Assembly (NCBI GenBank): GCA_964452555.1
Contig: CAYVMI010000006.1
Coordinates: 9,880 to 73,879 of the forward strand
Direction: 5' to 3'
DNA: 64,000 nucleotides
Source of the DNA: an uncultured Desulfobacterales bacterium
Lineage (GTDB): Bacteria; Desulfobacterota; Desulfobacteria; Desulfobacterales; B30-G6
The notes below the pieces were generated by a model. It saw only the letters and a list, made by a program, of their open reading frames with translations. It had not been told where the DNA came from and ran no database searches. Of the stretch, positions 5,597 through 64,000 are shown in pieces; the first letter of the stretch is position 1; each line of letters opens with the position of its first letter. Both the position numbers and the translations under genes were made by a program.

Positions 5597-6217
5597 ATGG
5601 AATTACACATCTTTTTTGCTTTCGTTGTTGCCACGACCATTATGATTGCATTGCCCGGACCGAGTGTCCTTCTGACTGTCGCCCATAGCATCACCTTTGG
5701 CTGGCAGCGTGCCCTGGCCACGGTTGCCGGAGCCACCATGGGAATTGCCGTTCAGCTAATTATTGCCGCTATCGGTCTAACATCATTGTTAAATATTGTT
5801 GCCGCAGCATTTGAGTGGCTGCGCTGGACTGGCGCTGTCTACCTTGTTTATTTAGGGATTAAGCAATGGCGAAGCGCCAGTGAACCGCTGAAGTTTGACA
5901 CCGCCCCGATCTCAACGACCAATCTATTTATTCAAGGGCTGGTTATCACCATATTCAATCCCAAGAGCCTGATATTCATTGCCGCCTTTCTGCCGCAATT
6001 CGTGGATGCCACCCGCCCGCTTGGACACCAATTAACTGTAATAGTTCCCGTATTTTTGGTGATCACCTTTACGGTGACCTCTGTTTGGGCCTTGGTCGCC
6101 GGAAACGTAAGAATATTGCTGCGTAGCCGGCGTGCCGCTCAATCCGTCTTTCGAACTGCCGGCGGATTGATGGTGGTCGCCGGGCTAGGTCTGGCGCTGG
6201 CTCGCCGTGGCAACTGA
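5597..6217 (+). CDS. LysE/RhtB-family amino-acid exporter
   Basis: The ATG at 5597 follows AGGAG (5584-5588) at 8-nt spacing. MELHIFFAFVVATTIMIALPGPSVL and NPKSLIFIAAFLPQF motifs match LysE. The track start at 5567 is probably too early. Confidence 0.85.
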   Translation: MELHIFFAFVVATTIMIALPGPSVLLTVAHSITFGWQRALATVAGATMGIAVQLIIAAIGLTSLLNIVAAAFEWLRWTGAVYLVYLGIKQWRSASEPLKFDTAPISTTNLFIQGLVITIFNPKSLIFIAAFLPQFVDATRPLGHQLTVIVPVFLVITFTVTSVWALVAGNVRILLRSRRAAQSVFRTAGGLMVVAGLGLALARRGN

Positions 6218-6447: not shown

Positions 6448-7062
6448 ATGGATCACAGCAAACTGCTAAGTAAAGTGCCGCTATTTTCAGAAATGAAGGC
6501 AGAGGATTTGGCCAGAATCTCTGAATCCGCCCTTGTGGTTAGTTATAATGACGGGGATATTATTATAAAAGAGGGGGCTCAGGATAGGCGTCTTTTTGTC
6601 ATTATTTCCGGAAGCGTTGAAGTCATAAAGAATCTGAACAGTAAAAAAGAAGCATCTATCGATTCATTCGGACCTCTAAGTTATTTTGGTGAGATGGCGC
6701 TGATTGACGATGAAGTCAGATCCGCTAGTGTGGTGGCTAGAGAAGCAACTAGCGTCCTTACCATTAATCATATGGATCTACGGCAGGAATTAAAACAGTA
6801 TCCGGATATGGCCGTTGAATTGCTTCAAATGCTCAGCCGGCGGATTCGCCTGATAGAAAAAACCCTGATCAATACACTGGGTTCTTTTCTACCCGTTTGT
6901 GCGAACTGCCGTAAAATCAGGGATGAAGACGGCATCTGGTCCTCAATGGAAGCATACATTTCAGAACATTCCGATACAGAATTCAGTCATGGTATATGCC
7001 CGAAATGTGCTGAGGTCCTTTATCCTGAATTTTACGCCGCACCACCTGAAACGTCCCAATAA
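6448..7062 (+). CDS. cyclic-nucleotide-binding domain protein with C-terminal Cys/His zinc-ribbon-like module
   Basis: cNMP-binding beta-barrel signature FGEMALIDDEVRSASVVA. C-terminal CANCRKIRDEDGIWSSMEAYISEHSDTEFSHGICPKCAE. Confidence 0.8.
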   Translation: MDHSKLLSKVPLFSEMKAEDLARISESALVVSYNDGDIIIKEGAQDRRLFVIISGSVEVIKNLNSKKEASIDSFGPLSYFGEMALIDDEVRSASVVAREATSVLTINHMDLRQELKQYPDMAVELLQMLSRRIRLIEKTLINTLGSFLPVCANCRKIRDEDGIWSSMEAYISEHSDTEFSHGICPKCAEVLYPEFYAAPPETSQ

Positions 7063-7104
7063 ATGAATTGTTCAACCACATCCGTCATATCCAGGTACTA
7101 GTTT

Positions 7105-7629
7105 ATGGCAATGCTCGACCCTAAAGAAAAATCATTTCGGTTTAAATTAATTGCTGTCATTGCCTGCTGCCTGCTGCTATTCGATGCTTTTTTTATGGGT
7201 GTTCCCATTTTTGGTTCCATAATTTTGATTTTCCTTGTTTTAGCATCGGGAATATCCGCCATAATTTTTCTTTTTCGCAATAAACGTATTTCCAAACTAT
7301 ACGCCATCAAAGCATTGATCTACTTCATAAGCTTTATAAGTATAATAGGCATATTCAAATTCAATACTTACATCGGTGAGCGAAACGCAAACATCCTTGT
7401 CAACGCCATAAATTCCTATCACGCCGATACTGGCATATACCCTGAAAATCTAGATCAACTGGTTCCTAACTATTTAGAAAATATACCAAATTGTGCTTAT
7501 CGGATGGGGGATAATAAGTACCGATATCACATCGATCAAGACAGGACCGATTTGATGTATACGAAAGTGCCACCATTCGGACGTCGTATCTACTATTTTA
7601 AAACAGCTGAATGGGTATATGTAGATTAG
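7105..7629 (+). CDS. hypothetical membrane protein
   Basis: 174-aa ORF with three N-terminal hydrophobic helices and a soluble C-terminal part. No family recognised. Confidence 0.5.
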   Translation: MAMLDPKEKSFRFKLIAVIACCLLLFDAFFMGVPIFGSIILIFLVLASGISAIIFLFRNKRISKLYAIKALIYFISFISIIGIFKFNTYIGERNANILVNAINSYHADTGIYPENLDQLVPNYLENIPNCAYRMGDNKYRYHIDQDRTDLMYTKVPPFGRRIYYFKTAEWVYVD

Positions 7630-45081: not shown

Positions 45082-45462
45082 TCACCACGATACAATTTCG
45101 CCATCGTCAAAGACATGCTCTGAAAACGCCTGCCGATGGTTGATGAAAATCTGGTTCCTGGAAAGATGGGCATGCTTGGAAATACTGTCAGCTAAACTCA
45201 GGAGCATTTGTTTGACTGTCTCTTTAGAATTGAAATCGGGTGTCAACAATTCGACAATCACCGCATGATATTCCGACGGATGTGTGCCCGGGGTAATATT
45301 GCGGGTGGCATAGTGACCGGGTTTGAAGAATTCCCAGGTCGTATGGATATGCTCCGGAGAAATATCGGTTTTTTGAGAAAATTCTTTGGCAACGGCACGC
45401 AGCACCTGGCTGATATTCAGTTCAGGCTCAAGGGGTAATGATTTGATGTGAATATATGGCAT
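45082..45462 (-). CDS. tautomerase-superfamily-like protein
   Basis: Starts MPYIHIKSL (Pro at position 2 after Met), and the 126-aa length is compatible with long tautomerase-family members. Weak assignment. Confidence 0.4.
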   Translation of the reverse strand: MPYIHIKSLPLEPELNISQVLRAVAKEFSQKTDISPEHIHTTWEFFKPGHYATRNITPGTHPSEYHAVIVELLTPDFNSKETVKQMLLSLADSISKHAHLSRNQIFINHRQAFSEHVFDDGEIVSW

Positions 45463-45609: not shown

Positions 45610-45657
45610 CCCAGAGGCGCCTATTGGCCGTGTACCTTGCCAATAGACGCCTCTGGG
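45610..45657. terminator. 19-bp stem hairpin between two minus-strand genes
   Basis: CCCAGAGGCGCCTATTGGC / GCCAATAGACGCCTCTGGG with 1 mismatch and a 10-nt loop, 17 nt downstream of the stop at 45674. No clear U-tract. Confidence 0.45.
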
Positions 45658-45673: not shown

Positions 45674-46420
45674 TTAGTTGGTAACCATTGCGGCCTGAAT
45701 AAATGACAGAATCAAAGGGTGCGGCGCTCCTTTTTGGGATGACAACTGGGGTAGAAAAAGCGTTGCCGCGTAAAACGGGTGTCCTGACAATTCTATGATT
45801 CTGGCATTACCTTCTTCATCAACACCGGTAATATTGAGTTGACCGGATTTTATGTCGGGGCTAAAGGCCTCGTTCAGACCATAGTTGCACGTAAATTTTT
45901 CAATTACCGTTGCCTGTCCATACACTTTTTGCGCCAGGGAGTCGGCAACAATTTTGACCGTCTGGGAAACTCCCGCCAGGGAACACGAAAGTTTGCTGAT
46001 GACAAGGGCCGCGGCATTCGGATGCATTTCTTCGTGGGCGGCCCCCGGAATACCGGCTACATTCCTGGCATACTCTAACAGAGTATGTTGAAAACCGGCT
46101 CAGGTACCAAAAAACGGTTTGCGTCGCTCCCGACAATATTGAATGGCCTCAATGGCAGCGTCCGGATACGCATAGTCACCGGGGCCGGCCCAGACACCAT
46201 GAAATTCCTTCAGCGTATCATTACTATAATCTTGATTCGCCAAAGCTGCCGTGGTCAACCAGGTATGTTGGATATCCATGGATAAATGTTCGCTCACATG
46301 CATTAAGGCAGCATCTGTCATCAATTGCGATGCGCGTTGATCATCCAGATCACTAATGATTCCTATTTTGAGTGTCATCGTCACGACAAATTTCCTTATG
46401 CGCTTATCTATAAAGCTCAA
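45674..46420 (-). CDS. CTP-synthase-C-terminal-like class I amidotransferase-fold selenoprotein (UGA=Sec at nucleophile)
   Basis: ORFs 46100..46420 and 45674..46027 are in one frame. Read-through of the TGA at 46100-46102 gives KPFFGT-U-AGFQHTLLEYARNVAG. The start is uncertain (TTG 46420 or ATG 46378). See findings. Confidence 0.7.
46069..46087 (-). promoter_or_regulatory. candidate SECIS stem-loop
   Basis: Perfect 7-bp stem CAUACUC/GAGUAUG with a loop UGUUA, starting 13 nt after the UGA. Confidence 0.6.
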
Positions 46421-46434
46421 GTGCCACCATAAGC

Positions 46435-46632
46435 AGGATCGCTGGTGTTCAGTTTTAACCCAGACAACTGTTTAAGTTCTTTAATCACTGTTAGGCCGCC
46501 GTTGTGAAAGCAGCTGATAGGTGTACGCGACTGCCTCTTTAGCTAAAATATGTTTTTATTGACGAGCGGCGGCGGTTGTTACGGTGTTTAAGAACGAGTT
46601 TTGGCTGGTAAAAACTGAACGCCAGCGATCCT
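46435..46632. mobile_element. MITE-like element with 26-nt terminal inverted repeats
   Basis: AGGATCGCTGGTGTTCAGTTTTAACC (46435-46460) versus GGTAAAAACTGAACGCCAGCGATCCT (46607-46632), reverse complements with 2 mismatches. The interior is also partly self-complementary. Confidence 0.6.
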
Positions 46633-46694
46633 GATCCTATTAACTTGAGCTTTCTGGATAACCACGATTCCTTATGAATTTTGATCAAGTAAAG

Positions 46695-47162
46695 TCACCC
46701 AGGTAGGTTTGTATTGATCTGTTTGCCCATACTGATTCTATTTTCAACACTATATCCATTGGTTTGGTAGAATTCTTGTACGGCCTCGTTTCCGCCCATG
46801 ATTTGAAGATTGATTTTCACACATCCCAGGTATGCTAATTGTTCTTCGGCATGCTTCAAGAGGGCAGACCCGATGCCTCGATGCTGCTCCGAGGCCATGA
46901 CTGCCATGGAATATATCCATCCTCGATGCCCGTCGTAACCGGCCATGACAGACCCCACCACGACGCCATTGCGGACGGCGACCCAGAACAAACCATCTAC
47001 AGCAGCCGACTTCTGGTCGATGACAAAACCCGGGTCATTGCGGGCATCTTCATAACCAAAACTGCGCCGCCATATTTCCATGACAGCATCACGATGCTGG
47101 TTGTTGTCATAGCCTACTATTATGATTGACTTTTTTTCTATCATAGCAATTTTTCCTAGCAC
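46695..47162 (-). CDS. GNAT-family N-acetyltransferase
   Basis: IYSMAVMASEQHRGIGSALLKHAE...EFYQTNGY. Confidence 0.8.
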   Translation of the reverse strand: MLGKIAMIEKKSIIIVGYDNNQHRDAVMEIWRRSFGYEDARNDPGFVIDQKSAAVDGLFWVAVRNGVVVGSVMAGYDGHRGWIYSMAVMASEQHRGIGSALLKHAEEQLAYLGCVKINLQIMGGNEAVQEFYQTNGYSVENRISMGKQINTNLPG

Positions 47163-47182: not shown

Positions 47183-48310
47183 TTATCTAAAAGCTTGTTC
47201 AATATCCGCAAGGATATCTTCCGGATCTTCGATCCCCACAGACAGTCTGAGGAGGCCGTCCGTGATCCCTAACTGGGCCCGCTCTGCATCGCTTATTTTG
47301 GCATGGGAAGTTACCGCCGGAGCACACACAATGGTTTCCACACCGCCAAGGCTGAGAGCCGGACGAATCAATTTTAACCTCCTCAGAAACTGTTGGGTAT
47401 CGAAACGTTTTGTATCCAGCTCGAACGATAGCATACCGCCAAATGCCTGCATCTGTCTGCTGGCGATGTCAAAGCCGGGATGCGATTCTAGGCCGGGATA
47501 GTAAACCGCACTGATCTGATCCTTTTCCGCCAGCTCTCTGGCAATGGCTAATGCATTTTGATTATGCCTATCCACCCGGATTCCCAATGTTTTTAAACTT
47601 CTTTCGATTAAATAACAGGTAAGCGCATTAAGACTGCCGCCAAAGTTGGCCGCAGTTACCTTAATCTTCTCAATTAACGCTTTGGATGCCATTGCCGCAC
47701 CGCAGCAGATGTCGCTGTGACCGCCGATATACTTGGTCCCGCTGTGAATGACCACATCGATACCGAAATCGATGGGTGTCTGGTTAATGGGCGTCGCAAA
47801 TGTATTGTCAATGATCGTCAGAATCTGTTTTGACCGTGCAAAATCAGCCACAGCTTCAATATCCGTTATCAGCAGCAGCGGATTGGATGGCGTTTCAATA
47901 TAGATGATACGGGTGTTGTCCCGGACCTTGGCTTGAATATCGGCTAGATCGTTGTCTACAAAATCATAGGCGATGCCAAAACGATCAAACTCGGCGGTGG
48001 CAAAATGGTGCGTGCCACCATAGATGTCTTTTTGAAGCACTATATGATCGCCCTGCTTGAGCAAGGCGAAGATCGTTGTGCTGATGGCAGCCATACCTGA
48101 GCTGAAAAATAGGCCATCTTCAGCATTCTCCAGAGCACACAGTTTCGCGATGATGGCCTTCTGATTGGGGGTATTATAGTAGCGCGGGTAAACGTTTTCA
48201 TCCAGATCCATGTATTCATACGAAGATGAAGGATAAATGGGCGTGCCAATACCTTTGGTAATGGCATCTGCATAGGTTCCGCTGTGGACGCACTTAGTAT
48301 CTTTTTTCAT
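47183..48310 (-). CDS. PLP-dependent Cys/Met-metabolism enzyme (cystathionine gamma-synthase/beta-lyase family)
   Basis: The ATG at 48310 follows AGGAGG. FSSGMAAI and HSGTKYIGGHSD (PLP-Lys) motifs. Confidence 0.85.
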   Translation of the reverse strand: MKKDTKCVHSGTYADAITKGIGTPIYPSSSYEYMDLDENVYPRYYNTPNQKAIIAKLCALENAEDGLFFSSGMAAISTTIFALLKQGDHIVLQKDIYGGTHHFATAEFDRFGIAYDFVDNDLADIQAKVRDNTRIIYIETPSNPLLLITDIEAVADFARSKQILTIIDNTFATPINQTPIDFGIDVVIHSGTKYIGGHSDICCGAAMASKALIEKIKVTAANFGGSLNALTCYLIERSLKTLGIRVDRHNQNALAIARELAEKDQISAVYYPGLESHPGFDIASRQMQAFGGMLSFELDTKRFDTQQFLRRLKLIRPALSLGGVETIVCAPAVTSHAKISDAERAQLGITDGLLRLSVGIEDPEDILADIEQAFR

Positions 48311-48328
48311 TCTTTTACCTCCTGGCAA

Positions 48329-56859: not shown

Positions 56860-58167
56860 CTACGGTTTAGGATATGGATTCACATCAGCCAAATCTGGCC
56901 CTAGATAGGCGCGCTCATTCTCACCCAGAATACCCATGGCCAGGCACATGAGGGTCCAAATATGTACGGAATGGTACTTGCCTTCGAAATGTTCACCTAA
57001 ATCGTGAATTTGCGAATGACAGTTGTGACACGGGGTAATACAGTAATCTGCATTGGTTTCTACAATCTGTTCGAACTTTCTTTTCCCGTAATAACGACGC
57101 GCCTCCGGATACCCGGATTGCAGAAAGCCGCCGCCCCCGCCGCAGCAATAATTATTGGATCGGTTGGGGGCCATATCGACGAAGTTCTCTTCTCCTACAA
57201 TGGTTTTTACCACCATGCGAAGATCCTCGGCCACTGGATCGCCAAGCGACTTTCGAACCAACTGGCAGGGATCTTGAACCGTGAATGTTACCCCCAGGTC
57301 ATCATTCCAGCTGGAGTCAATGTTCAGTTTTCCCTCGCGTATCCACTGGGCATAATATTCGATGATCGATCTAACCTCGAAATTGTGTTCGATATTGAAT
57401 TTGTTCAGTCCGACCCGGACTGAGAAAAACTCATGACCTCACTCGGTGTTGAGCCAGACCTTGCACCCCAGGGCATCCACCGCCTCGGCTTTGATACGCA
57501 CGTTCTTTTCCCACTTCTCGTTATCGGCCAGAAACAAGCAATAATTTTCGGCGGCCCACCCCTTGGAGCCATAAGTCCAGTCAGCGCCAACCGTGTGCAA
57601 AATTTTCCATAACGGCACCATTTCATCCGGTTCCGTAACCGGTTCACGGGAGTTCTGGTTCAAGAAAAATTCAGCCCCGTGCTTGTCAATCGGCGCCTGC
57701 ATCTCCTTGAACTCAGGCTGTTCTTCCTGATACTCCTCCAACACGTCCTCAACGACGAATTGAAAATCCTCTACTGTCGCTCCCATGGCACTGCAGGTAT
57801 CATTTTTAAAGGCCATCTCACACGAGCCATGGATTCCCTTGGGTCGATCTTCCACGGGCCAGCGATTACGAACGTTGAAAACCAGGGCCGGGATATCGAT
57901 CTTCATGGGACAGGCAATGATACATCGCTGGCACATGGTACACATCCAGGCCCACTTCGAACTCAGCACCTCTTCATCCAGTCCCAGGGAGGCCATTCTT
58001 AAAAATTTACGCGGATCCATTTCCTCCAGCCCGGTTGCCGGGCACCCTGAGGAACACAACCCACAGGTCAAACAAAGATTTAAATTGCCCCCCTCGGGCA
58101 GGATTTTCATGACCTCTTCTTTGAATACGCTTTTCTTCTTATCTAACTTTAGAACCGGCAATGACAT
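56860..58167 (-). CDS. HdrD-like Fe-S oxidoreductase selenoprotein (2x4Fe-4S + Cys-rich CCG-type domains, UGA=Sec)
   Basis: ORFs 57439..58167 and 56860..57261 are in one frame. Read-through of the TGA at 57439-57441 plus 59 open codons gives 435 aa: CLTCGLCSSGCP, CTMCQRCIIACP, ...LNTE-U-GHEFF...DPCQL...NNYCCGGGGG...TPCHNCH. Confidence 0.8.
57406..57422 (-). promoter_or_regulatory. candidate SECIS stem-loop
   Basis: Perfect CAGUCCG-GGU-CGGACUG hairpin, or a 6-bp stem with a GGGUC loop, starting 17 nt after the UGA. Confidence 0.6.
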
Positions 58168-58243
58168 GTTTAACTCCTATCAATTTCAGCCAAATTTGAA
58201 CGGCTGTTACAGATCGACCTGGCATGCATCAAATCTGATTGGA

Positions 58244-58633
58244 TTACATGCCCAGCATCGAGCGAATGCTTTGGGAAATTTCCTCCGCCGAAGCAGGCTT
58301 GGCAATATAATCATCGGCCTCGGTGCTCATGCCGTCGGCGTGAGAATAACGGGTCGACGTGACATGCGATGCCACAGCAGTCAATAAAAGTACCGGGATT
58401 TCGCACAAATCGCCATCCGCTTTAAGTTCCTTGCACATTTCATATCCATCTTTTTCAGGCATCATAACATCAAGCACGATGGCATCGGGCGGATTGGCCT
58501 GGACTTTTTCCATGCCTTCCACCCCGTTATATGCCAGTTCAACTTCAAAGCCTTCCTTTTCCAGCTGCCCCTGAACGATGGAGCAGAAGTCAGGCTCATC
58601 ATCTACTACCAGAATTCTTTTTTTATCCGTCAT
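58244..58633 (-). CDS. receiver-only response regulator (CheY-like)
   Basis: ILVVDDEPD, IVLDVMMPEKDG and ADDYIAKP motifs. 129 aa with no output domain. Confidence 0.85.
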   Translation of the reverse strand: MTDKKRILVVDDEPDFCSIVQGQLEKEGFEVELAYNGVEGMEKVQANPPDAIVLDVMMPEKDGYEMCKELKADGDLCEIPVLLLTAVASHVTSTRYSHADGMSTEADDYIAKPASAEEISQSIRSMLGM

Positions 58634-58684
58634 GGTAAACCTCCTGTCTGTTCCAATACGACAATTATTACTCGGTTAAATGCT

Positions 58685-59614
58685 TCACACACTGGGCCGT
58701 GGATATAAGCCCGCTGCTTCCACGATTTCAGGGACCATTTCCTCCCACTCGATGGCCATGACGTGAAAGCCACTGACGCCTTCCACTTCTTTCAACCGCT
58801 GAATATCCTCAATACAGATCTTGACACCCTCCTCGGCCTGTTTTTCCTTGGGCGTATCCGCTAAACGTTTAACCAGCTCATCGGGTACATCCATGCCGGG
58901 GACGCGGTTCTTCATATACTTGGCCATGCCGGCCGATTTCATGGGTGTCATGCCAGCCAGGATATAGACCTGCTCATGCAAACCACGGTCCCGGGCCAGT
59001 TTCATCCATTCCTCAAATTTATCCAGGTTGTAGATACACTGGGTCTGAATAAATTCGGCCCCGGCCTTAATCTTCTTAGCCAATCTGGGCACCCGTATTT
59101 CAAATGGGTCGGCAAAGGGATTGGCTGCGGCTCCCACAAACATCTGCGGCGGTCGTTTGATCTCATCGCCACCCAAGAATTTGCCTTCATCCCGCATATG
59201 GCGAACGGTCTGAACCAGCTGCATGGAGTCTAGATCGTGCACATTCTGGCCCTGGGCGCAGTCACCAAAACTTTGATGATCGCCGGAGAGACACAGAATA
59301 TTGGCAATATCATAGGATGCCGCCCCTAAAATATCACTCTGCAAGGCAATCCGGTTACGATCGCGTGTCACCATTTGCAATACCGGCTCCAAGCCCATCA
59401 GCTTGATACGAATACAGGCCGCCAGGCTACACAGACGCGTAACAGATGTCTGGTTATCGGTGATATTGATGGCATCAACATGGTCTTTTATCAGCTCTGC
59501 TTTTTTAGTAATCGCATCCGGATCACTGCCACGCGGCGGACCACATTCCGATGTAACGGCCATTTGACCGGAAGCTAATACTTTTTCCAAGCGACTCGGC
59601 GTTTTTGTTTTCAT
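58685..59614 (-). CDS. metF: methylenetetrahydrofolate reductase
   Basis: INITDNQTS, QMVTRDRN and LCLSGDH motifs of the MTHFR TIM barrel. Its start overlaps the metV stop. Confidence 0.9.
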   Translation of the reverse strand: MKTKTPSRLEKVLASGQMAVTSECGPPRGSDPDAITKKAELIKDHVDAINITDNQTSVTRLCSLAACIRIKLMGLEPVLQMVTRDRNRIALQSDILGAASYDIANILCLSGDHQSFGDCAQGQNVHDLDSMQLVQTVRHMRDEGKFLGGDEIKRPPQMFVGAAANPFADPFEIRVPRLAKKIKAGAEFIQTQCIYNLDKFEEWMKLARDRGLHEQVYILAGMTPMKSAGMAKYMKNRVPGMDVPDELVKRLADTPKEKQAEEGVKICIEDIQRLKEVEGVSGFHVMAIEWEEMVPEIVEAAGLYPRPSV

Positions 59615-60279
59615 GACTGCACATCCTCCCTCACAACTTTTCGCGGTCCTCCCGCCCGGTCGGTGGACCAGTCTTTAATCGGACTCAGCTCTTCATATTC
59701 ATCGAATCTTTCCAGGGCTTTGAGACGCTCAACAATCAGTTGCCAAGCACACACAAGCTCTTTGCTGATTTCGCACATGCCGTTGGTGGACCCACCACAG
59801 GGTCCATTCATCACACGCTTGGCACAGCGTGAAACCGGACAGATACCACCCGTGCGGGATAAAATGCATTGCCCGCAACCCTGGCATCGTTCGGTCCAGA
59901 GTCCGCGTTCCTCGGTTGCGCCCATAAAACAGGTGTTGACACCCGGATAAACAGGCATGGCCAAATACTTTTCGGCTGTGAACTGAACGCCGACGCCACA
60001 GGCTATCGATACAATGGCATCGTACTGGTCAATATCATTGCGGATCTCCTCCAGGTACTCATGGTCGCATTGGCGTTCGAGCGTTCGCTCATCGACCTTC
60101 TTTTCTGTGCCCTTGTTCAGAAAATACATGCGCAATGCCGATGCCAGGATGCCAACCTCCTTTTTTCCGCCGGCCTCACATACTGTTACACACTCATTGC
60201 ATCCTAGTATCAGTATCTTTTGGTGATCCTTTATGTCCTCAATAATCTCTTCAATCGGCTTCTTGTCGGCGACAATCAT
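59611..60279 (-). CDS. metV: MetV-like protein (MTHFR C-terminal Cys-rich domain)
   Basis: Cys-rich LGCNECVTVCEAGG and CQGCGQCILSRTGGICPVSRCAKRVMNGPCGG, as in acetogen-type MetV. Confidence 0.8.
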   Translation of the reverse strand: MIVADKKPIEEIIEDIKDHQKILILGCNECVTVCEAGGKKEVGILASALRMYFLNKGTEKKVDERTLERQCDHEYLEEIRNDIDQYDAIVSIACGVGVQFTAEKYLAMPVYPGVNTCFMGATEERGLWTERCQGCGQCILSRTGGICPVSRCAKRVMNGPCGGSTNGMCEISKELVCAWQLIVERLKALERFDEYEELSPIKDWSTDRAGGPRKVVREDVQS

Positions 60280-60418
60280 AATTTTATCCTCTTAGCTTGG
60301 GTCTTTCCAAATTCGGTTTATGGTTTACATCGTAGCCTTTTTTTATTCTTTAAATCGCGGTCGCAAGCCAAGCGCCTTGCGGTTATCAGCCATGCCGGCC
60401 TATAATGGCGCTAGACCG

Positions 60419-60850
60419 TCAGGCCGCGTCCTTTTTGGGCAGTTTGATGGGATTGGGACCGAGTTCCTTGATTTTTTTGACCATGTCCACAGCCACTTCC
60501 GCAAACATGGGGCCTTCGCTGGACGCCATATTGAACATTTCCACCCGCTCGCCGCCCACACCCACTGTATCCAGTATCTGCTTGGCCTGTTCGATCCGTT
60601 TGCGGGCTCTAAAATTGCCACCGGTATAATGACAATCACCTTCCATACATCCCACGGCATAAACACCGTCGGCCCCCTTTTCAAAAGATTTGAGGATATG
60701 CAGTATATCCACCTTTCCGGTGCAGGGTACCCGGATAATCTTGATGTTCGTCGGATACGTCAGTCGCATGGAACCTGCCAGGTCCGCGGCCGTATACCCT
60801 CAGAAATTACAACAAAAGGCGATGATTATAGGCTCAAATGTTTGGCTCAT
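60419..60850 (-). CDS. mvhD: MvhD/FlpD-like selenoprotein (UGA=Sec in CNxC motif)
   Basis: The ATG at 60850 forms an ATGA overlap with the upstream stop. Read-through of the TGA at 60800-60802 gives MSQTFEPIIIAFCCNF-U-GYTAADLAGSMRLTYPTNIKIIRVPCTGKVD...GADGVYAVGCMEGDCHY. Confidence 0.8.
60770..60785 (-). promoter_or_regulatory. candidate SECIS stem-loop
   Basis: GGACC-UGGCA-GGU(U)CC: a 5-bp stem with one bulged U, starting 15 nt after the UGA. Hand-folded. Confidence 0.5.
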
Positions 60851-63800
60851 AGGACTCCCTCCAGCAAGGATTCTATCTTGCAAATCAATTGATCGTCTTC
60901 ATACCAGTTTAGCTCAATGGCCTTTGCCGGACATTCCGCTGCACACACTCCACACCCGTGGCACAAGGCCACATCAATCTCACTAACCCCATCGGCATTG
61001 ATCACGGGAACTTCATAGGGACAGGAGCGTACACAAATCAGGCAGGAAGCGCACATGTCCTGTTTGACCTCGGCCGTTATGGCGGACAAGGTCAGCTCCG
61101 ATTGGGACAGGAAGGTAATAGCCCGCGAAGCGGCTGCATTGGCTTGGGATATGGTTTCAGAAATCAGCTTGGGACTGTGAGCGGTGCCACATACAAAAAT
61201 GCCCTCCGTGGCCATATCGACAGGCCGTAGTTTCACATGGGCTTCCATGAAAAAGCCCTCCGGTCCCCGGGCCAGCTTTACAATCGAAGCAAGCTCGGCC
61301 GTGTCCTCCGGCACCATCCCCGCACTCAAGGCCAGCACATCGGCCGTAACCTGCAAAGGCCGATTCAGTACATGATCATGAAAGGTAACATTCACCCCAT
61401 TTTCTGAAGATTCCACCTGGGGTGGATTGTCGGGTGTATAGCGGAAGAACAAAATGCCCGCTTTGCGGGCTTCTTTATAATACTCCTCCAACAAGCCATA
61501 GGTCCGGATATCCCGATACAACACATAGATATTGGCATCCGGATGCTCTTCACGAATATGAAGGGCATTTTTGATGGCATTCTGACAGCAGATCCGTGAA
61601 CAATTGGGATTGTCATCATTGCGCGAACCCACGCACTGGATCATGACGACGGAGTTTAAAGAACCCGGTTCCAGTGTTTCCATATGGTGGGTCAGTTCCA
61701 CCTGGGTCATCACGCGATTATCTTCGCCATATAGGTATTCTTTAGGCTCATATTCCTTGGCGCCGGTGGCCAGGATTACGACCCCGTGTTCAATCTTGCG
61801 TTCGTACATACCGGGCCCCACCAAAACTTCGGTCGTGAAATTTCCCTTGAAACCGGAAAAGCCCACGATGAGGGATTGGGTCAGCACCTGGATGTTATCA
61901 TGTGCGCCAACCCGTTCACCGAGTTCTGTCAGGTAGGGTTGGATTTGGGCTCCTTCAATAGTGGCCTTCAGATTGTTGGCCATACCGCCCAGTTGATTCT
62001 CCTTTTCCACCAGAAACACTTCGTATCCCTGATCCGCTAAACCCAGGGCGGAATTCATGCCGGCAATACCACCGCCCACCACCAATGCCTTTTGGTTGAC
62101 CGGTATGGTTTTTTCACCCAAGGGATTGAGAGTGGCTGCCCGGGCCACGGCCATGCGGACCAGATCTTTTGATTTCTCCGTCGCCTCTGCAGCCTCTTTC
62201 GCATGCACCCAGGAACCTTGATTGCGGATATTGGCCATTTCAAAAAGATACTTATTAAGCCCGCATTCGCGCAGGGTGTCCATGAAAATGGCCTCATGGG
62301 TCTTGGGAGTACAGGCCGCCACCACAATCCGATTGAGATTCTGCTCCTTGATAATCTCTTTCATCTGGTCTTGTGAATCCTGGGAGCAGGTAAACAGGTT
62401 CTGGGTCACATAGGTGACAAAGGGCAGGGTCTGGGCATATTCCTCCACAGCGGCCACATCCACAACTCCGGATATGTTAATGCCGCAATTGCAAACGAAT
62501 ACACCGATACGGGGTTCTTCCTGACTGACGTCGATCTCTGCGGGTAGCTCTACTGTTCGGGTCAAAGTATTGCGGGCTGCAGCCAGGCGTGTTCCGGCGG
62601 CACATGCAGCTGCCGAAGCCTCCGAAACCGAGCTGGGTATGTCTTTGGCTTCCTGAAATGATCCGCTGACATAAATCCCCGGACGCGAGGTTTCCACCGG
62701 GGAAAACGGCTCAGTCACCGCGAAATTATATTGATCCATCTCGACTTCGAGACGTTTGGCCAGATCGATGGTCTGTTCCGACACTTGCAAGCCCACCGAG
62801 AGGACCACCATATCGAAAATTTCTTCTTGGAGTTCGCCGGCCTCATCGGCATAGCGGATGCGTAGATCCTTATTCTCACCGATCTCGTCAATGGTGTGGA
62901 CTCGCGCCTTGACGAATTTCACTCCTTCCTGGTCTTTGGCGCGGACATAGTACTTTTCAAAATCCTTTCCAAAGGTGCGGATATCCATATTAAAGATGGT
63001 GCAGTCCAGATCTTCTTTGGAATGTTCCTTGGCCACCATGGCATCCTTGATGGCGTACATGCAGCAGACCGATGAGCAGTAACCATTGCCGCATTGATTG
63101 CTGTCGCGGGAACCGATGCACTGCAACCAGGCGATCTTTTTGGGTTCGGTTTCGTCCGACGGCTTGATCAGGTGCCCCATGGTGGGACCCGATGCACTCA
63201 GCATGCGCTCGAATTCCAGACTCGTCATCACATTCGGATTGGTCCCGTAGTGATAATGCCTTTCTAAATGACCGGGATCATAAGGCCGGGCGCCCGTGGA
63301 CAGCACCACGGACCCCACGGGAATCTGTCTTTCTTCAAGCACCTGTTCATGTTCCACGGCACCCGCCAGACAAGCCTCAACACACTGATAACATTCCGAG
63401 CAAATACCGCAGGAAAGACAACGATCAGATTCCTTTTTTGAGATGGCCTCGTCAAACCCCAGCTGGACTTCGTTAAAATTTGAAATCCGATCCTCGACTG
63501 CCAGGGTCGGCATCTTTTCCTTGGGTTGAATAACAGCATTATCCAATGGTATGTCATCCACCGTTGCCCAATGTTTTTCGCGTCCGGCATCCAGTTCCTG
63601 TCCCTGTACAAAACGGTCGATGGATATGGCTGCCTGCTTCCCGGCTTCCACCGCTTCCACCACCGTGGCCGGGCCGGTCACGGCGTCACCGCCTGAAAAA
63701 ATGTCCGGATCGTTTGATTGGAGCGTTACCGGATCCACTTGCATGGTGCCCCAGTCACTTAAAGTACAGGCACACTCATCGGTCAGACAGGCCCAGTCGG

Positions 63801-64000
63801 TTTCCTGGCCGATGGCGGGAATGACCGTATCCACCTCCATGGTAAATTCAGAGCCCTCGATGGGGACCGGCCTGCGTCTGCCGCTGGCATCCGGCTTTCC
63901 CAGCTCCATCTTGATGCATTCAATCGCCTTGACCTTGCCGTTCTCACCGATCACACGAATCGGGGTGGTTAAGGTCATGATATCGATGCCTTCTTCAGCG
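60847..64000 (-). CDS. hdrA: GltD-like / HdrA-like fusion flavo-Fe-S oxidoreductase, 5' end beyond window
   Basis: The frame is open to the window edge. N-terminal visible part is MELGKPDASGRRRPVPIEGSEF...VIPAIGQ...GGDAVTG (GltD/NfnB-like). Then come CLSCGICSECYQCVEAC, two HdrA-type segments (LQCIGSRD...CSSVCCMYA and IQCVGSRN...CSRICCQNA), VVGGGIAGMNSA and C-terminal CASCLICVRSCP/CHGCGVCAAECP. Confidence 0.85.
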   Translation of the reverse strand, partial: AEEGIDIMTLTTPIRVIGENGKVKAIECIKMELGKPDASGRRRPVPIEGSEFTMEVDTVIPAIGQETDWACLTDECACTLSDWGTMQVDPVTLQSNDPDIFSGGDAVTGPATVVEAVEAGKQAAISIDRFVQGQELDAGREKHWATVDDIPLDNAVIQPKEKMPTLAVEDRISNFNEVQLGFDEAISKKESDRCLSCGICSECYQCVEACLAGAVEHEQVLEERQIPVGSVVLSTGARPYDPGHLERHYHYGTNPNVMTSLEFERMLSASGPTMGHLIKPSDETEPKKIAWLQCIGSRDSNQCGNGYCSSVCCMYAIKDAMVAKEHSKEDLDCTIFNMDIRTFGKDFEKYYVRAKDQEGVKFVKARVHTIDEIGENKDLRIRYADEAGELQEEIFDMVVLSVGLQVSEQTIDLAKRLEVEMDQYNFAVTEPFSPVETSRPGIYVSGSFQEAKDIPSSVSEASAAACAAGTRLAAARNTLTRTVELPAEIDVSQEEPRIGVFVCNCGINISGVVDVAAVEEYAQTLPFVTYVTQNLFTCSQDSQDQMKEIIKEQNLNRIVVAACTPKTHEAIFMDTLRECGLNKYLFEMANIRNQGSWVHAKEAAEATEKSKDLVRMAVARAATLNPLGEKTIPVNQKALVVGGGIAGMNSALGLADQGYEVFLVEKENQLGGMANNLKATIEGAQIQPYLTELGERVGAHDNIQVLTQSLIVGFSGFKGNFTTEVLVGPGMYERKIEHGVVILATGAKEYEPKEYLYGEDNRVMTQVELTHHMETLEPGSLNSVVMIQCVGSRNDDNPNCSRICCQNAIKNALHIREEHPDANIYVLYRDIRTYGLLEEYYKEARKAGILFFRYTPDNPPQVESSENGVNVTFHDHVLNRPLQVTADVLALSAGMVPEDTAELASIVKLARGPEGFFMEAHVKLRPVDMATEGIFVCGTAHSPKLISETISQANAAASRAITFLSQSELTLSAITAEVKQDMCASCLICVRSCPYEVPVINADGVSEIDVALCHGCGVCAAECPAKAIELNWYEDDQLICKIESLLEGVL

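Follow-up and report, generated by a model that had tools for sequence, protein, structure and literature searches.

Hydrolases of the peptidase C26 type, such as gamma-glutamyl hydrolase and PuuD, retain a Cys-His(-Glu) triad, and the bSECIS model of Zhang and Gladyshev reportedly describes a hairpin within the coding sequence, directly 3′ of the UGA, with a small loop that starts with G. For CTP synthase, roles in activation by GTP have been described for the L11 lid, the L13 wing, the GG(T/S)(M/L)RLG motif and Arg468/Arg470, and in the E. coli enzyme the substitution G352P abolishes both glutaminase activity and DON labelling (PMC9138612). In Desulfosediminicola ganghwensis, Xiao and Zhang (2025, PMC12013277) described a selenoprotein form of the family treated here under the name ‘glutamine amidotransferase (COG0504, PyrG)’, and a 2026 review catalogues the family as a selenoprotein with the motif GxUxG (PMC13188914); our literature search returned no mention of PRK06186 and no biochemical study of the family. 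The selenoprotein status of the family is thus not new, and the gene described here is another member of a catalogued family, ordinary in the sense that an NCBI model would name it and that its family has stood in the selenoprotein catalogue since 2025. What we add is that the triad His is missing family-wide, that the elements of GTP activation are gone, that four residues are specific to the family and that no gene neighbour is conserved. The best explanation overall, to which we give a probability of roughly 0.6, is an NF004836 selenoprotein with a glutamine-amidotransferase (GATase) fold that has given up the triad and glutaminase activity and acts as a covalent selenocysteine (Sec)/Cys enzyme.

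The gene lies on the minus strand of the window, by which we mean the whole 64-kb stretch of DNA that was analysed, and is made up as follows.

45674..46378, minus strand: complete selenoprotein coding sequence, 234 residues plus a TAA stop, with Sec as residue 93; a member of NCBIfam NF004836.
46100..46102, minus strand: in-frame UGA, read as Sec (U93), aligned with Cys379, the catalytic residue of E. coli CTP synthase.
46376..46396, minus strand: probable ribosome-binding site AGGAA (46396..46392) and ATG (46378..46376), proposed from the sequence; the homologous ATG of locus L001 is preceded by GGAGG.
45610..45657, no strand: 19-bp inverted repeat, 95% complementary, with a 10-nt spacer, just 3′ of the stop codon.

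An earlier note on this DNA had placed the minus-strand ORFs 46100..46420 and 45674..46027 in one frame, interrupted solely by the TGA at 46102..46100, and this stands: past the TGA the frame is open until the TAA at 45676..45674. In translation the context of Sec93 is FFGT-U-AGFQHTLLEYARNV, and the predicted Sec-spanning peptide is FFGT-U-AGFQHTLLEYAR. The ATG at 46378..46376, chosen through homology with L001, is the likely start codon; the inverted repeat beyond the stop has no U-tract after it and could be either a terminator or a repeat element. Upstream and downstream of the TGA alike, substitutions relative to relatives of 77-82% identity are mostly at third codon positions. Against L001 the differences by codon position number 11/8/33 upstream of the TGA and 18/9/60 downstream, and because they concentrate on third positions both halves of the gene, including the frame downstream of the TGA, are evidently under purifying selection. 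Orthologues do not end at the TGA, and their downstream frame is conserved.

Searched against family profiles with U entered as C, the protein scores 287.6 bits on NF004836 (cutoff 260), its residues 3-230 covering profile positions 1-227 of 228, and 36.2 bits on Pfam GATase PF00117 (gathering score 22.8). To the full CTP synthase profile TIGR00337 it reaches 115.5 bits against a cutoff of 462.75, with the match limited to profile positions 291-526, and the N-terminal amidoligase (synthase) domain is absent from its 234 residues. [quoted passage not shown] Its elbow motif, GT-U-AGFQH, fits the family motif G-T-[C/U]-x-G-F-Q-H, and U93 aligns with the U of the published D. ganghwensis protein, at 38% identity between the two. 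Across the family loci fetched from many phyla, codon 93 is TGA in 135, a total that includes a 15-locus set and the loci of a TGA-specific metagenome scan, and TGC or TGT (Cys) in 63; all 80 loci checked from that scan encode family members. Since Sec and Cys exchange there, residue 93 is taken to be the working residue of the family. The family comprises ~950 clusters at 50% identity and is present in Pseudomonas, Klebsiella, Streptomyces, Paenibacillus and many uncultured lineages; public entries appear as fragments of 94 to 128 residues, carry ‘CTP synthase’ as their name and show the Sec codon as ‘Trp’. The nearest named relatives are ‘Deltaproteobacteria bacterium’ MAGs, at ~70% identity.

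Downstream of the UGA lies a candidate signal for its recoding.

46069..46087, minus strand: apical SECIS hairpin CAUACUCU-GUU-AGAGUAUG, 8 bp, with a loop that begins with G, 12 nt past the UGA.
46052..46099, minus strand: extended SECIS stem obtained by folding, its lower helix GCCGGUUUUC / GAA..AGCCGGU enclosing the apical hairpin.

A perfect stem-loop starting 13 nt after the TGA had been described previously; the hairpin is present, with 8 bp (or 7 bp and a UGUUA loop), and the start has to be corrected to 12 nt. Its proposed identity as a SECIS-type hairpin at bacterial spacing is upheld, the first loop base being G and the stem being kept by compensatory changes. The apical hairpin alone folds at -7.4 kcal/mol, and together with the lower stem to 46052 (the UGA plus 49 nt) at -19.2 kcal/mol; taken by itself, the sequence folds just marginally better than its shuffles (z = -1.8), and it is the comparative evidence that makes the hairpin more than chance. 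In a fixed register all eight pairs form at 12 of 15 Sec loci and at none of 63 Cys loci, and registers 50-54 hold a stem of 5 bp or more without interruption in 95 of 117 Sec sequences as against 4 of 63 Cys sequences. Sec sequences with the stem almost always start the loop with G, and the apical loops across Sec forms read GUU, GGU, GGUCG or GUCGA. Double-sided compensatory changes occur at pairs 19-31 and 20-30, AU becoming GC and CG becoming UA. Paired cells reach 99%, compared with 14-56% when the partner is slid, the former figure being inflated because the set admitted just those sequences that form at least 7 of 8 pairs; the independent evidence therefore consists of the compensatory changes only. 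Among relatives the lower stem is less conserved than the apical hairpin, and an Rfam scan of the whole 64-kb window at gathering thresholds gave no match, with no curated SECIS or RNA family on the hairpin. Compensatory changes evidently maintain the hairpin in Sec forms, and it is essentially absent from Cys forms; the comparison of loci establishes the UGA at 46102..46100 as a predicted Sec codon, recoded by an in-frame SECIS hairpin 12 nt downstream.

Elsewhere in the window TGA is an ordinary stop, ending 27 of the 68 ORFs of at least 90 aa (6215-6217 and 60847-60849 among them), and recoding is for that reason site-specific, as the earlier note had argued, and not the product of an altered genetic code. 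A further gene bears on decoding.

60850..60419, within the same 64-kb window: second selenoprotein gene, MvhD/VhuD-like, recognised by its UGA and a match to solved VhuD.

The UGA of this gene aligns with the non-standard residue X of the solved VhuD structure 9sfi_K, and its presence in the window argues that the organism decodes Sec. An HdrA-like ORF ending at 60847 was also considered, with its TGA as a Sec codon, and was rejected: the frame closes after 6 codons and the TGA is a true stop. A tRNA scan of the 64-kb window that included tRNA-Sec found no tRNA gene, and none of selA, selB, selC and selD lies within it.

Readings that dispense with Sec have next to no probability. A nonsense-mutated pseudogene, or two independent small genes that share a frame by chance, would agree with the two ORFs that gene callers report and with a Sec machinery not visible in the 64-kb window, but 135 loci spread over many phyla have TGA at exactly this codon and are otherwise free of stops and frameshifts, purifying selection acts on both halves, and the TGA and the hairpin co-occur. 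Moreover, only when the halves are joined do they give one domain of known fold, and the downstream half has neither a start codon before Met119 nor an independent family of its own; this reading is effectively refuted already. Decoding of the UGA as Trp or Cys, through an altered code or general read-through, is just as negligible. The Trp displayed at the Sec position in some database entries (P0001, P0002), which would speak for it, is a gene-caller translation of TGA codons (locus L087 carries TGA, and its translation differs from the query); TGA terminates many window ORFs, as counted above, and the hairpin together with a second UGA gene matching a solved Sec protein points to SelB-type insertion and not to an altered code.

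The encoded protein shares its fold, that of class I glutamine amidotransferases, with the C-terminal domain of CTP synthase, and Sec93 lies at the nucleophile elbow. Its active-site features are these.

45746..45754, minus strand: L209-P210-Q211, at the position of the CTP synthase triad H515-P-E517; catalytic His and Glu absent.
46085..46087, minus strand: codon of His98, at the end of G-T-U-x-G-F-Q-H; near-invariant and family-specific (Val/Leu/Ile in CTP synthase).
46028..46036, minus strand: H115-E116-E117; His115 is family-specific (Ser401 in E. coli) and Glu117 corresponds to CTP synthase Glu403.
45983..45985, minus strand: Cys132 in L-x-C-S-L-x-G, which replaces the GTP-activation motif GG(T/S)(M/L)RLG found only in CTP synthase.
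45887..45889, minus strand: Cys164 in E-x-[FY]-x-C-N-[YF]-G; near-invariant, aligned to E. coli H469-R470.

When the protein is aligned by phmmer to solved CTP synthases, the TGA falls on the catalytic Cys column (G-I-C-F-G-F-Q in 3nva), not outside it, and L-P-Q falls on the H-P-E column, which bears out both the nucleophile-elbow position and the LFLPQ reading that the earlier note had proposed. Its further proposal of a selenoenzyme that keeps the GATase fold and nucleophile is supported by the PF00117 match, by the Sec in the Cys column and by structure prediction: an AlphaFold2 model of the Cys homologue P0006, which stands in for the window protein, has a pLDDT of 96.6, and the top Foldseek hits to it are without exception glutaminase domains of CTP synthase (TM ~0.9). 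In an alignment of 90 homologues (A2) the His column holds Leu in 48, Gln in 26 and Val in 16, never His, and the Glu column holds Gln in 52 and Glu in 36, so that Glu is absent from 54 of the 90. The claim that the triad partners are lost is thus right for the canonical positions and must be qualified beyond them, as the family’s own near-invariant His98 and His115 could replace the lost residues, and for the same reason glutaminase chemistry can be called only probably absent. The oxyanion-hole motif P-G-G-F-G of CTP synthase reads P-G-D-Y-A in the window protein and P-G-S-P-Y in most of the family, placing Asp at the second oxyanion-hole glycine, Gly352, where the family has Ser or Asp. The L13 wing is deleted (a 19-residue gap relative to CTP synthase), the GTP-site residues Arg440, Arg468 and Arg470 are replaced (R468/R470 by T/N), and S-C-S-L-A-G stands in place of GG(T/S)(M/L)RLG; in the alignment, the elements through which GTP activates CTP synthase (L11 lid, L13 wing, Arg440, Arg468/470) have been either lost or substituted. 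Family alignments show His98, His115, Cys132 and Cys164 to be both near-invariant and family-specific, and, since the published D. ganghwensis member has neither His115 nor Glu117, these two are not universally essential. To judge from its aligned residues, the protein is neither CTP synthase nor a canonical Cys-His-Glu glutaminase.

Upstream of the gene, two others complete a run on the same strand.

46695..47162, minus strand: GNAT acetyltransferase gene, directly upstream; it also adjoins the selenoprotein gene at loci L001, L005 and L006 of close relatives.
47183..48328, minus strand: PLP-dependent Cys/Met-metabolism enzyme (cystathionine gamma-lyase / methionine gamma-lyase class), first of the PLP-GNAT-selenoprotein run.

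The gap between the GNAT and selenoprotein genes is 22 nt in L005 and L006, 88 nt in L001 and 316 nt in the window, and the three-gene run is limited to the window protein’s own clade. Clustering of flanking ORFs at 78 loci revealed no conserved partner, and only 30 of 130 flanking genes lie on the same strand and within 120 nt. By Pfam, GNAT acetyltransferases are the commonest neighbours at genome loci (7 of 122); among 150 neighbours of metagenomic Sec loci they are not a top family, and BPD_transp_2 (8) and luciferase-like monooxygenase (6) lead. The neighbouring GNATs are not homologous to each other, and a GNAT partner as a general rule was dropped on these grounds; a recurrent association, with five independent GNAT fusions in support, is weakly indicated. 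A mercapturate-like pathway, in which removal of a gamma-glutamyl group would be followed by a PLP C-S lyase or by N-acetylation, was rejected for the family as a whole, the run being confined to one clade. No synthase partner is conserved beside the gene in ~200 loci, and a full-length pyrG sits directly upstream on the same strand in two Sec loci only (L013, L113). Domains fused to family members comprise GNAT (five fusions), methyltransferase, cupin, GyrI-like, ABM and chorismate mutase, counted as a small-molecule theme that favours a small-molecule substrate.

Our best guess, from residue conservation and homology mapping, is that the protein would be a stand-alone covalent Sec/Cys hydrolase or transferase and not an ammonia-channelling glutaminase, its stand-alone status being suggested by the want of a conserved gene neighbour. 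Sec93 would attack the substrate to form a covalent acyl-selenoester (an acyl-thioester in Cys forms), with acid-base help from the family-specific His98 and/or His115-Glu117, and the always-ionised selenol would reduce the need for the lost His. The retention of Gln97 and Glu117 from the glutamine site of CTP synthase argues for an amino-acid-like substrate. The more specific proposal, that an amide, gamma-glutamyl or thioester-type small molecule is attacked through such an acyl-selenoester, is tentative, with odds a little short of even.

Other functions have been weighed against the covalent Sec/Cys enzyme. A redox selenoprotein, in which the Sec93 selenol would alternate with a selenenylsulfide to Cys132 or Cys164, or serve as a selenenic acid or perselenide carrier on a GATase-fold scaffold, is unlikely, though several observations would suit it: both cysteines are near-invariant and specific to the family, the CTP synthase counterparts of the segments that contain them (the GG(T/S)(M/L)RLG motif and the R468/R470 strand) border the active-site cleft, the acid-base triad is missing in all members, and the majority of catalogued prokaryotic selenoproteins are redox proteins (PMC13188914). 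The PLP Cys/Met lyase two genes upstream in the clade could also make sulfide, selenide or persulfide, but that neighbour is restricted to one narrow clade. There is, moreover, no local motif of the CxxU/UxxC type, the neighbourhoods examined offer no thioredoxin, glutaredoxin or reductase as a partner, and a pure redox scaffold would have no need of the conserved Gln97 and Glu117 of the glutamine pocket. Those same residues, with the nucleophile, are what a canonical glutaminase subunit would keep if it supplied ammonia to a synthase encoded by another gene, perhaps CTP synthase, and the CTP synthase glutaminase domain is nearest in homology and fold, pyrG lies directly upstream in L013 and L113, and homologues are named ‘CTP synthase’ in public sources. 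Such a subunit is nonetheless very improbable: it would have to work with no triad His in any of the 90 aligned members and no Glu in 54, with Ser or Asp at Gly352, where G352P kills glutaminase activity and DON labelling in E. coli (PMC9138612), with its GTP-activation elements lost, and with no synthase conserved beside the gene. It is possible, though doubtful, that the family is a GATase-fold lineage that abandoned the triad for a base-independent or differently assisted nucleophile, giving either a new covalent hydrolase or transferase or a Sec93-Cys132-Cys164 site for redox or chalcogen transfer. Were that non-glutaminase lineage real, the loss of His would make a selenol’s low pKa especially valuable and would thereby account for at least two recruitments of Sec, and the family would supply the first selenoenzyme to pair an amidotransferase-type nucleophile elbow with a defined non-glutaminase reaction.

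The locus is a clean, well-supported case of how automatic gene calling breaks up or mistranslates a selenoprotein, and the exchange of Sec and Cys flags residue 93 as the functional position of a widespread family. Because the catalytic His is missing throughout the family, its published name, ‘glutamine amidotransferase’, probably misdescribes what these proteins do, and the missing residue gives work on the family a concrete, testable point of departure.

Set beside known systems, the window protein shares with the CTP synthase glutaminase domain (PyrG; PDB 3nva, 1vco, 1s1m) the same fold at ~25-30% identity, the nucleophile elbow, Gln383/Gln97 and Glu403/Glu117, the EYARNV helix and the HPFF and PHP motifs, and differs from it in His515 to Leu, Glu517 to Gln, Gly352 to Asp and Sec for Cys. 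Like the peptidase C26 enzymes (gamma-glutamyl hydrolase, PuuD) it is a single domain with an elbow nucleophile and no fused synthase, and some family members give weak matches to Pfam PF07722, whereas the family is without the His at the triad position that those enzymes have. The hairpin resembles SelB-dependent SECIS elements of the E. coli fdhF/fdnG type in lying within the coding sequence immediately 3′ of the UGA, with an apical stem ~11-12 nt past the UGA and a small G-first loop ~20 nt from it; its sequence, however, is unrelated to that of fdhF, its apical stem has no evident bulged U, and within the family it occurs in three registers. The published D. ganghwensis member, from a different source organism, has ~235 residues, the G-T-U-x-G-F-Q-H elbow and Sec in the same column, but reads LFQPQ and lacks His115 and Glu117, where the window protein carries LFLPQ and H115-x-E117.

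On the minus strand, 46420..45674 is a single open frame whose sole break is the TGA at 46102..46100, so that the two ORFs which the earlier note had joined across this codon do share one frame. The selenoprotein gene likely starts at the ATG 46378..46376, which is preceded by AGGAA and whose homologue in the 80%-identical locus of a close relative (L001) comes after GGAGG; the predicted product is 234 residues long, and its codon 93 is the TGA, in the context ...RKPFFGT-U-AGFQHTLLEYARNVAGIPGAAHEE.... As that note also held, TGA is an ordinary stop elsewhere, ending 27 of the 68 window ORFs of at least 90 aa; the genetic code is therefore standard and the event at codon 93 site-specific. Pseudogene and altered-code readings are both effectively excluded.

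The protein matches NCBIfam NF004836 over its full length (287.6 bits, above the curated cutoff of 260), a model whose name contains '(seleno)protein', as does the family name given in the earlier note, and scores about 115 bits with true CTP synthase models against cutoffs of 308-463. Pfam finds a class I GATase domain, and phmmer against the PDB aligns the protein only with CTP synthase glutaminase domains, placing U93 on the catalytic Cys column (G-I-C-F-G-F-Q in 3nva, a solved CTP synthase) and L209-P-Q211 on the triad H-P-E column; the alignment thus agrees with the first reading of the sequence, which had put the TGA at the nucleophile-elbow Cys and had seen LFLPQ in place of the triad His and Glu. 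An AlphaFold2 model of the Cys-form homologue P0006, built from a 90-sequence alignment, reaches a pLDDT of 96.6, and its top Foldseek matches are all CTP synthase glutaminase domains (TM ~0.9). The fold is that of a CTP-synthase-type amidotransferase, with selenocysteine at its nucleophile elbow.

The family is large, with 952 clusters at 50% identity in a profile search (E <= 1e-30), and Cys forms occur in Pseudomonas, Klebsiella, Citrobacter, Paenibacillus, Methylomonas, Streptomyces and many MAGs. Across non-identical loci from GTDB genomes and homologues, codon 93 is TGA in 15 and TGC or TGT in 63, and a TGA-specific pattern matched at least 120 stretches of metagenome contigs, with family members in all 80 checked. 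The search for Sec and Cys orthologues that the earlier note proposed thus yielded at least 135 Sec sequences (117 unique among the matches listed) beside the 63 Cys loci, and the downstream frame is conserved: between the window and three close relatives, third codon positions hold most substitutions on both sides of the TGA (against L001, 11/8/33 by codon position upstream and 18/9/60 downstream), which points to selection on each of the two parts. Neighbour-joining of 78 loci places the Sec forms in two clades. The larger has 12 loci (the window, Desulfobacterota-like relatives, Anaerolineales, Ardenticatenaceae, Dehalococcoidia and Clostridia); the smaller has 3 (Bacillota, Methylomirabilota and Rokubacteria) and carries another hairpin type. 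Such a distribution suggests that Cys and Sec were switched two or more times, or once long ago with later transfer. Several public entries (P0011, P0012, P0019, P0094, P0099, P0101, P0117) misrepresent Sec forms, among them C-terminal fragments of 128-152 residues and N-terminal fragments of 94; P0001 and P0002 show Trp at the Sec codon where the DNA has TGA (L087, 526-528), and the JGI name for Sec-form entries is 'CTP synthase (UTP-ammonia lyase)'.

A hairpin, CAUACUCU-GUU-AGAGUAUG, lies at 46087..46069 on the minus strand; the stem of SECIS geometry reported earlier is present, and begins 12 nt, not 13, 3' of the UGA. Its folding energy is -7.4 kcal/mol by itself and -19.2 kcal/mol once a lower stem that extends to 46052 is included. 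Against shuffles the single-sequence fold is marginal (z = -1.8), so that the argument for the hairpin has to come from related loci. In a fixed register, nt 16-23 with nt 27-34, all eight pairs form in 12 of 15 Sec loci and in none of 63 Cys loci; the other three Sec loci form a different hairpin, CGCGAUC-GUCGA-GAUCGCG, offset by 2 nt. Registers 50-54 hold an unbroken stem of 5 bp or more in 95 of the 117 Sec sequences among the matches listed, as against 4 of 63 Cys loci, and loops in this larger set (GGU, GUU, GGUCG or GUCGA) begin with G in nearly all. Sliding one partner by 1-3 columns lowers pairing from 99% to 14-56% in a main-register set that had been pre-selected for at least 7/8 pairs, so that only compensatory changes count as independent evidence: pair 19-31 is AU (36), GU (29) or GC (6), and pair 20-30 is CG (67) or UA (4). 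Such changes force coupled residue changes, Thr99 to Ala or Val with Tyr103 to His. Several Cys-form genes (L082, L038, L043, L071) bear a perfect 9-bp hairpin, UUCCAGCAC-AUG-GUGCUGGAG, within nt 10-30 downstream of the Cys codon. This hairpin lies in a different register, beginning about 6 nt after that codon, and may be either a relic or a side effect of the Q-H...V-L codons; a hairpin alone is therefore not diagnostic. By comparative sequence evidence, the window gene is a SECIS-dependent selenoprotein gene.

That the organism uses Sec is indicated by a second window gene, with an in-frame UGA at 60800-60802 (IIAFCCNF-U-GYTAADLAG) that aligns to the non-standard residue X of its best PDB match, 9sfi_K, the solved VhuD (F420-non-reducing hydrogenase subunit delta). 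A hairpin, GGACCU-GGC-AGGUUC, lies 3' of this UGA, and the start codon forms an ATGA overlap with the TGA stop (60847-60849) of the HdrA/GltD-like ORF that precedes it. Gene callers would miss this gene, which is overlain by a spurious plus-strand ORF at 60320-60892. The surrounding minus-strand cluster, 57439-63999, is typical of Desulfobacterota:

Running off the window end, minus, HdrA-like protein fused to a GltD-like NAD(P)-binding part, >1050 residues
60850..60419, minus, mvhD (Sec), following the HdrA-like/GltD-like ORF: MvhD/VhuD-like iron-sulfur protein, 143 residues
59611-60279, minus, MetV-like ORF
58685-59614, minus, MetF methylenetetrahydrofolate reductase
57439-58167, minus, HdrC/CCG-type iron-sulfur protein

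Residue correspondences between the selenoprotein and E. coli PyrG, from an alignment with a PyrG sequence that reproduces the canonical C379, H515, E517 and G351
D68, G352
U93, C379
Q97, Q383
H98, V384
H115, S401
E117, E403
C164, H469
N165, R470
L209, H515
Q211, E517

The loss of the triad His extends to the whole family: a triad-position His occurs in 0 of 90 aligned members (the column holds Leu in 48, Gln in 26 and Val in 16), and the Glu column is Gln in 52 and Glu in 36, counts that are not circular because the alignment came from a homology search rather than the motif-based locus scan. The second oxyanion Gly is Ser in the family and Asp in the window's clade. The elements of GTP activation in CTP synthase are deleted or replaced, namely the L11 lid, the L13 wing (a 19-residue deletion), GG(T/S)(M/L)RLG with Arg440, and Arg468/Arg470 (roles in PMC9138612). 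Features of CTP synthase that the family keeps are Gln97, Glu117, the EYARNV helix and the HPFF and PHP motifs. Near-invariant and specific to the family are His98 (87/90), His115, Cys132, which sits within the remodelled GGTMRLG segment, and Cys164; His115 and Glu117 are not universal, since the published Desulfosediminicola ganghwensis member has neither. Canonical triad partners, oxyanion Gly-Gly, GTP switch and synthase partner are all missing.

Since an exchange between Sec and Cys is the mark of a catalytic site, residue 93 is probably the working residue, and we infer a stand-alone enzyme that would not deliver ammonia to a partner. Our best guess, at a probability of about 0.4, is covalent catalysis on a small molecule: Sec93 would attack an amide, gamma-glutamyl or thioester-type substrate bearing an amino-acid-like end to give an acyl-selenoester, with His98 and/or His115-Glu117 as replacement acid-base groups and a permanently ionised selenol making up for the missing triad His. 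The main rival, a redox or chalcogen-relay site pairing Sec93 with the near-invariant Cys132 or Cys164, is less probable. A canonical glutaminase is improbable.

The genes around the selenoprotein gene, all on the minus strand apart from a repeat, are as follows:

47183..48328, minus, PLP Cys/Met-metabolism enzyme, upstream of the GNAT and selenoprotein genes
46695..47162, minus, GNAT acetyltransferase, upstream of the selenoprotein gene
45610-45657, inverted repeat (19 bp, 95% complementary, 10-nt spacer) that separates the selenoprotein stop from the next ORF
45082-45462, minus, Pro1 tautomerase-like ORF of 126 residues (start M-P-Y-I-H-I-K), directly downstream

The PLP-GNAT-selenoprotein run recurs in the close relatives L001, L005 and L006, with gaps down to 22 nt; the GNAT-selenoprotein spacer is 316 nt in the window (46379-46694, where a consensus scan found no convincing minus-strand promoter), 88 nt in L001 and 22 nt in L005 and L006. 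The tautomerase-like ORF, a weak Pfam Tautomerase_2 match (E = 2e-4, below gathering), is absent from L005; in L001 it begins 11 nt past the selenoprotein stop (from about 10398; TTG-CCT-TTC-ATT-CAT), which suggests co-translation there. The inverted repeat has no U-tract after it, is absent in L001, where the two genes abut, and could be either a terminator or a palindromic element that was inserted.

Outside the window's clade no conserved neighbour was found. GNAT neighbours number 7 of 122, with a further case in the Anaerolineales Sec locus L008, and five independent GNAT fusions to the family domain occur, in both orders; the recurrent GNATs are unrelated to one another, and no GNAT enrichment was seen around metagenomic Sec loci. 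Other fusion partners are methyltransferases, cupin, GyrI-like/Cass2, ABM, chorismate mutase II, ankyrin repeats and a kinase, a set typical of small-molecule metabolism. In two Sec loci, an Ardenticatenaceae MAG (L013, 4318-5916) and a soil metagenome contig (L113, 5026-6537), the gene directly upstream on the same strand is a complete pyrG whose product shares ~54% identity with the E. coli enzyme; this arrangement could reflect either local synteny or a functional tie to CTP synthase. Around the metagenomic Sec loci (L088-L207), the top neighbours among the matches listed are BPD_transp_2 (8/150), branched-chain-amino-acid/amide-type ABC permeases, and luciferase-like monooxygenases (6/150); in the Clostridia Sec locus L014 a TauE/SafE-family sulfite-exporter-like membrane protein (6754-7485) lies 28 nt downstream on the same strand.

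The searchable literature does not mention that every member lacks the triad His or that the GTP-switch elements are lost, nor does it mention the His and Cys residues specific to the family, the three registers of the SECIS hairpin or the absence of a conserved partner gene; it yielded no biochemical work on NF004836 either. The earlier note's overall interpretation, Sec at a GATase elbow with its triad partners lost, is supported, though not new: Xiao & Zhang 2025 (PMC12013277) predicted the family as a selenoprotein in D. ganghwensis and noted TGA- and Cys-containing homologues, leaving function undiscussed in the passages retrieved, and a 2026 review (PMC13188914) lists it under NF004836 with the motif GxUxG. 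The window gene adds a member to this catalogued family, as a well-documented case of a known, uncharacterised selenoprotein whose lost triad is a concrete, testable puzzle; it is 38% identical to the published D. ganghwensis protein, with U aligned to U.
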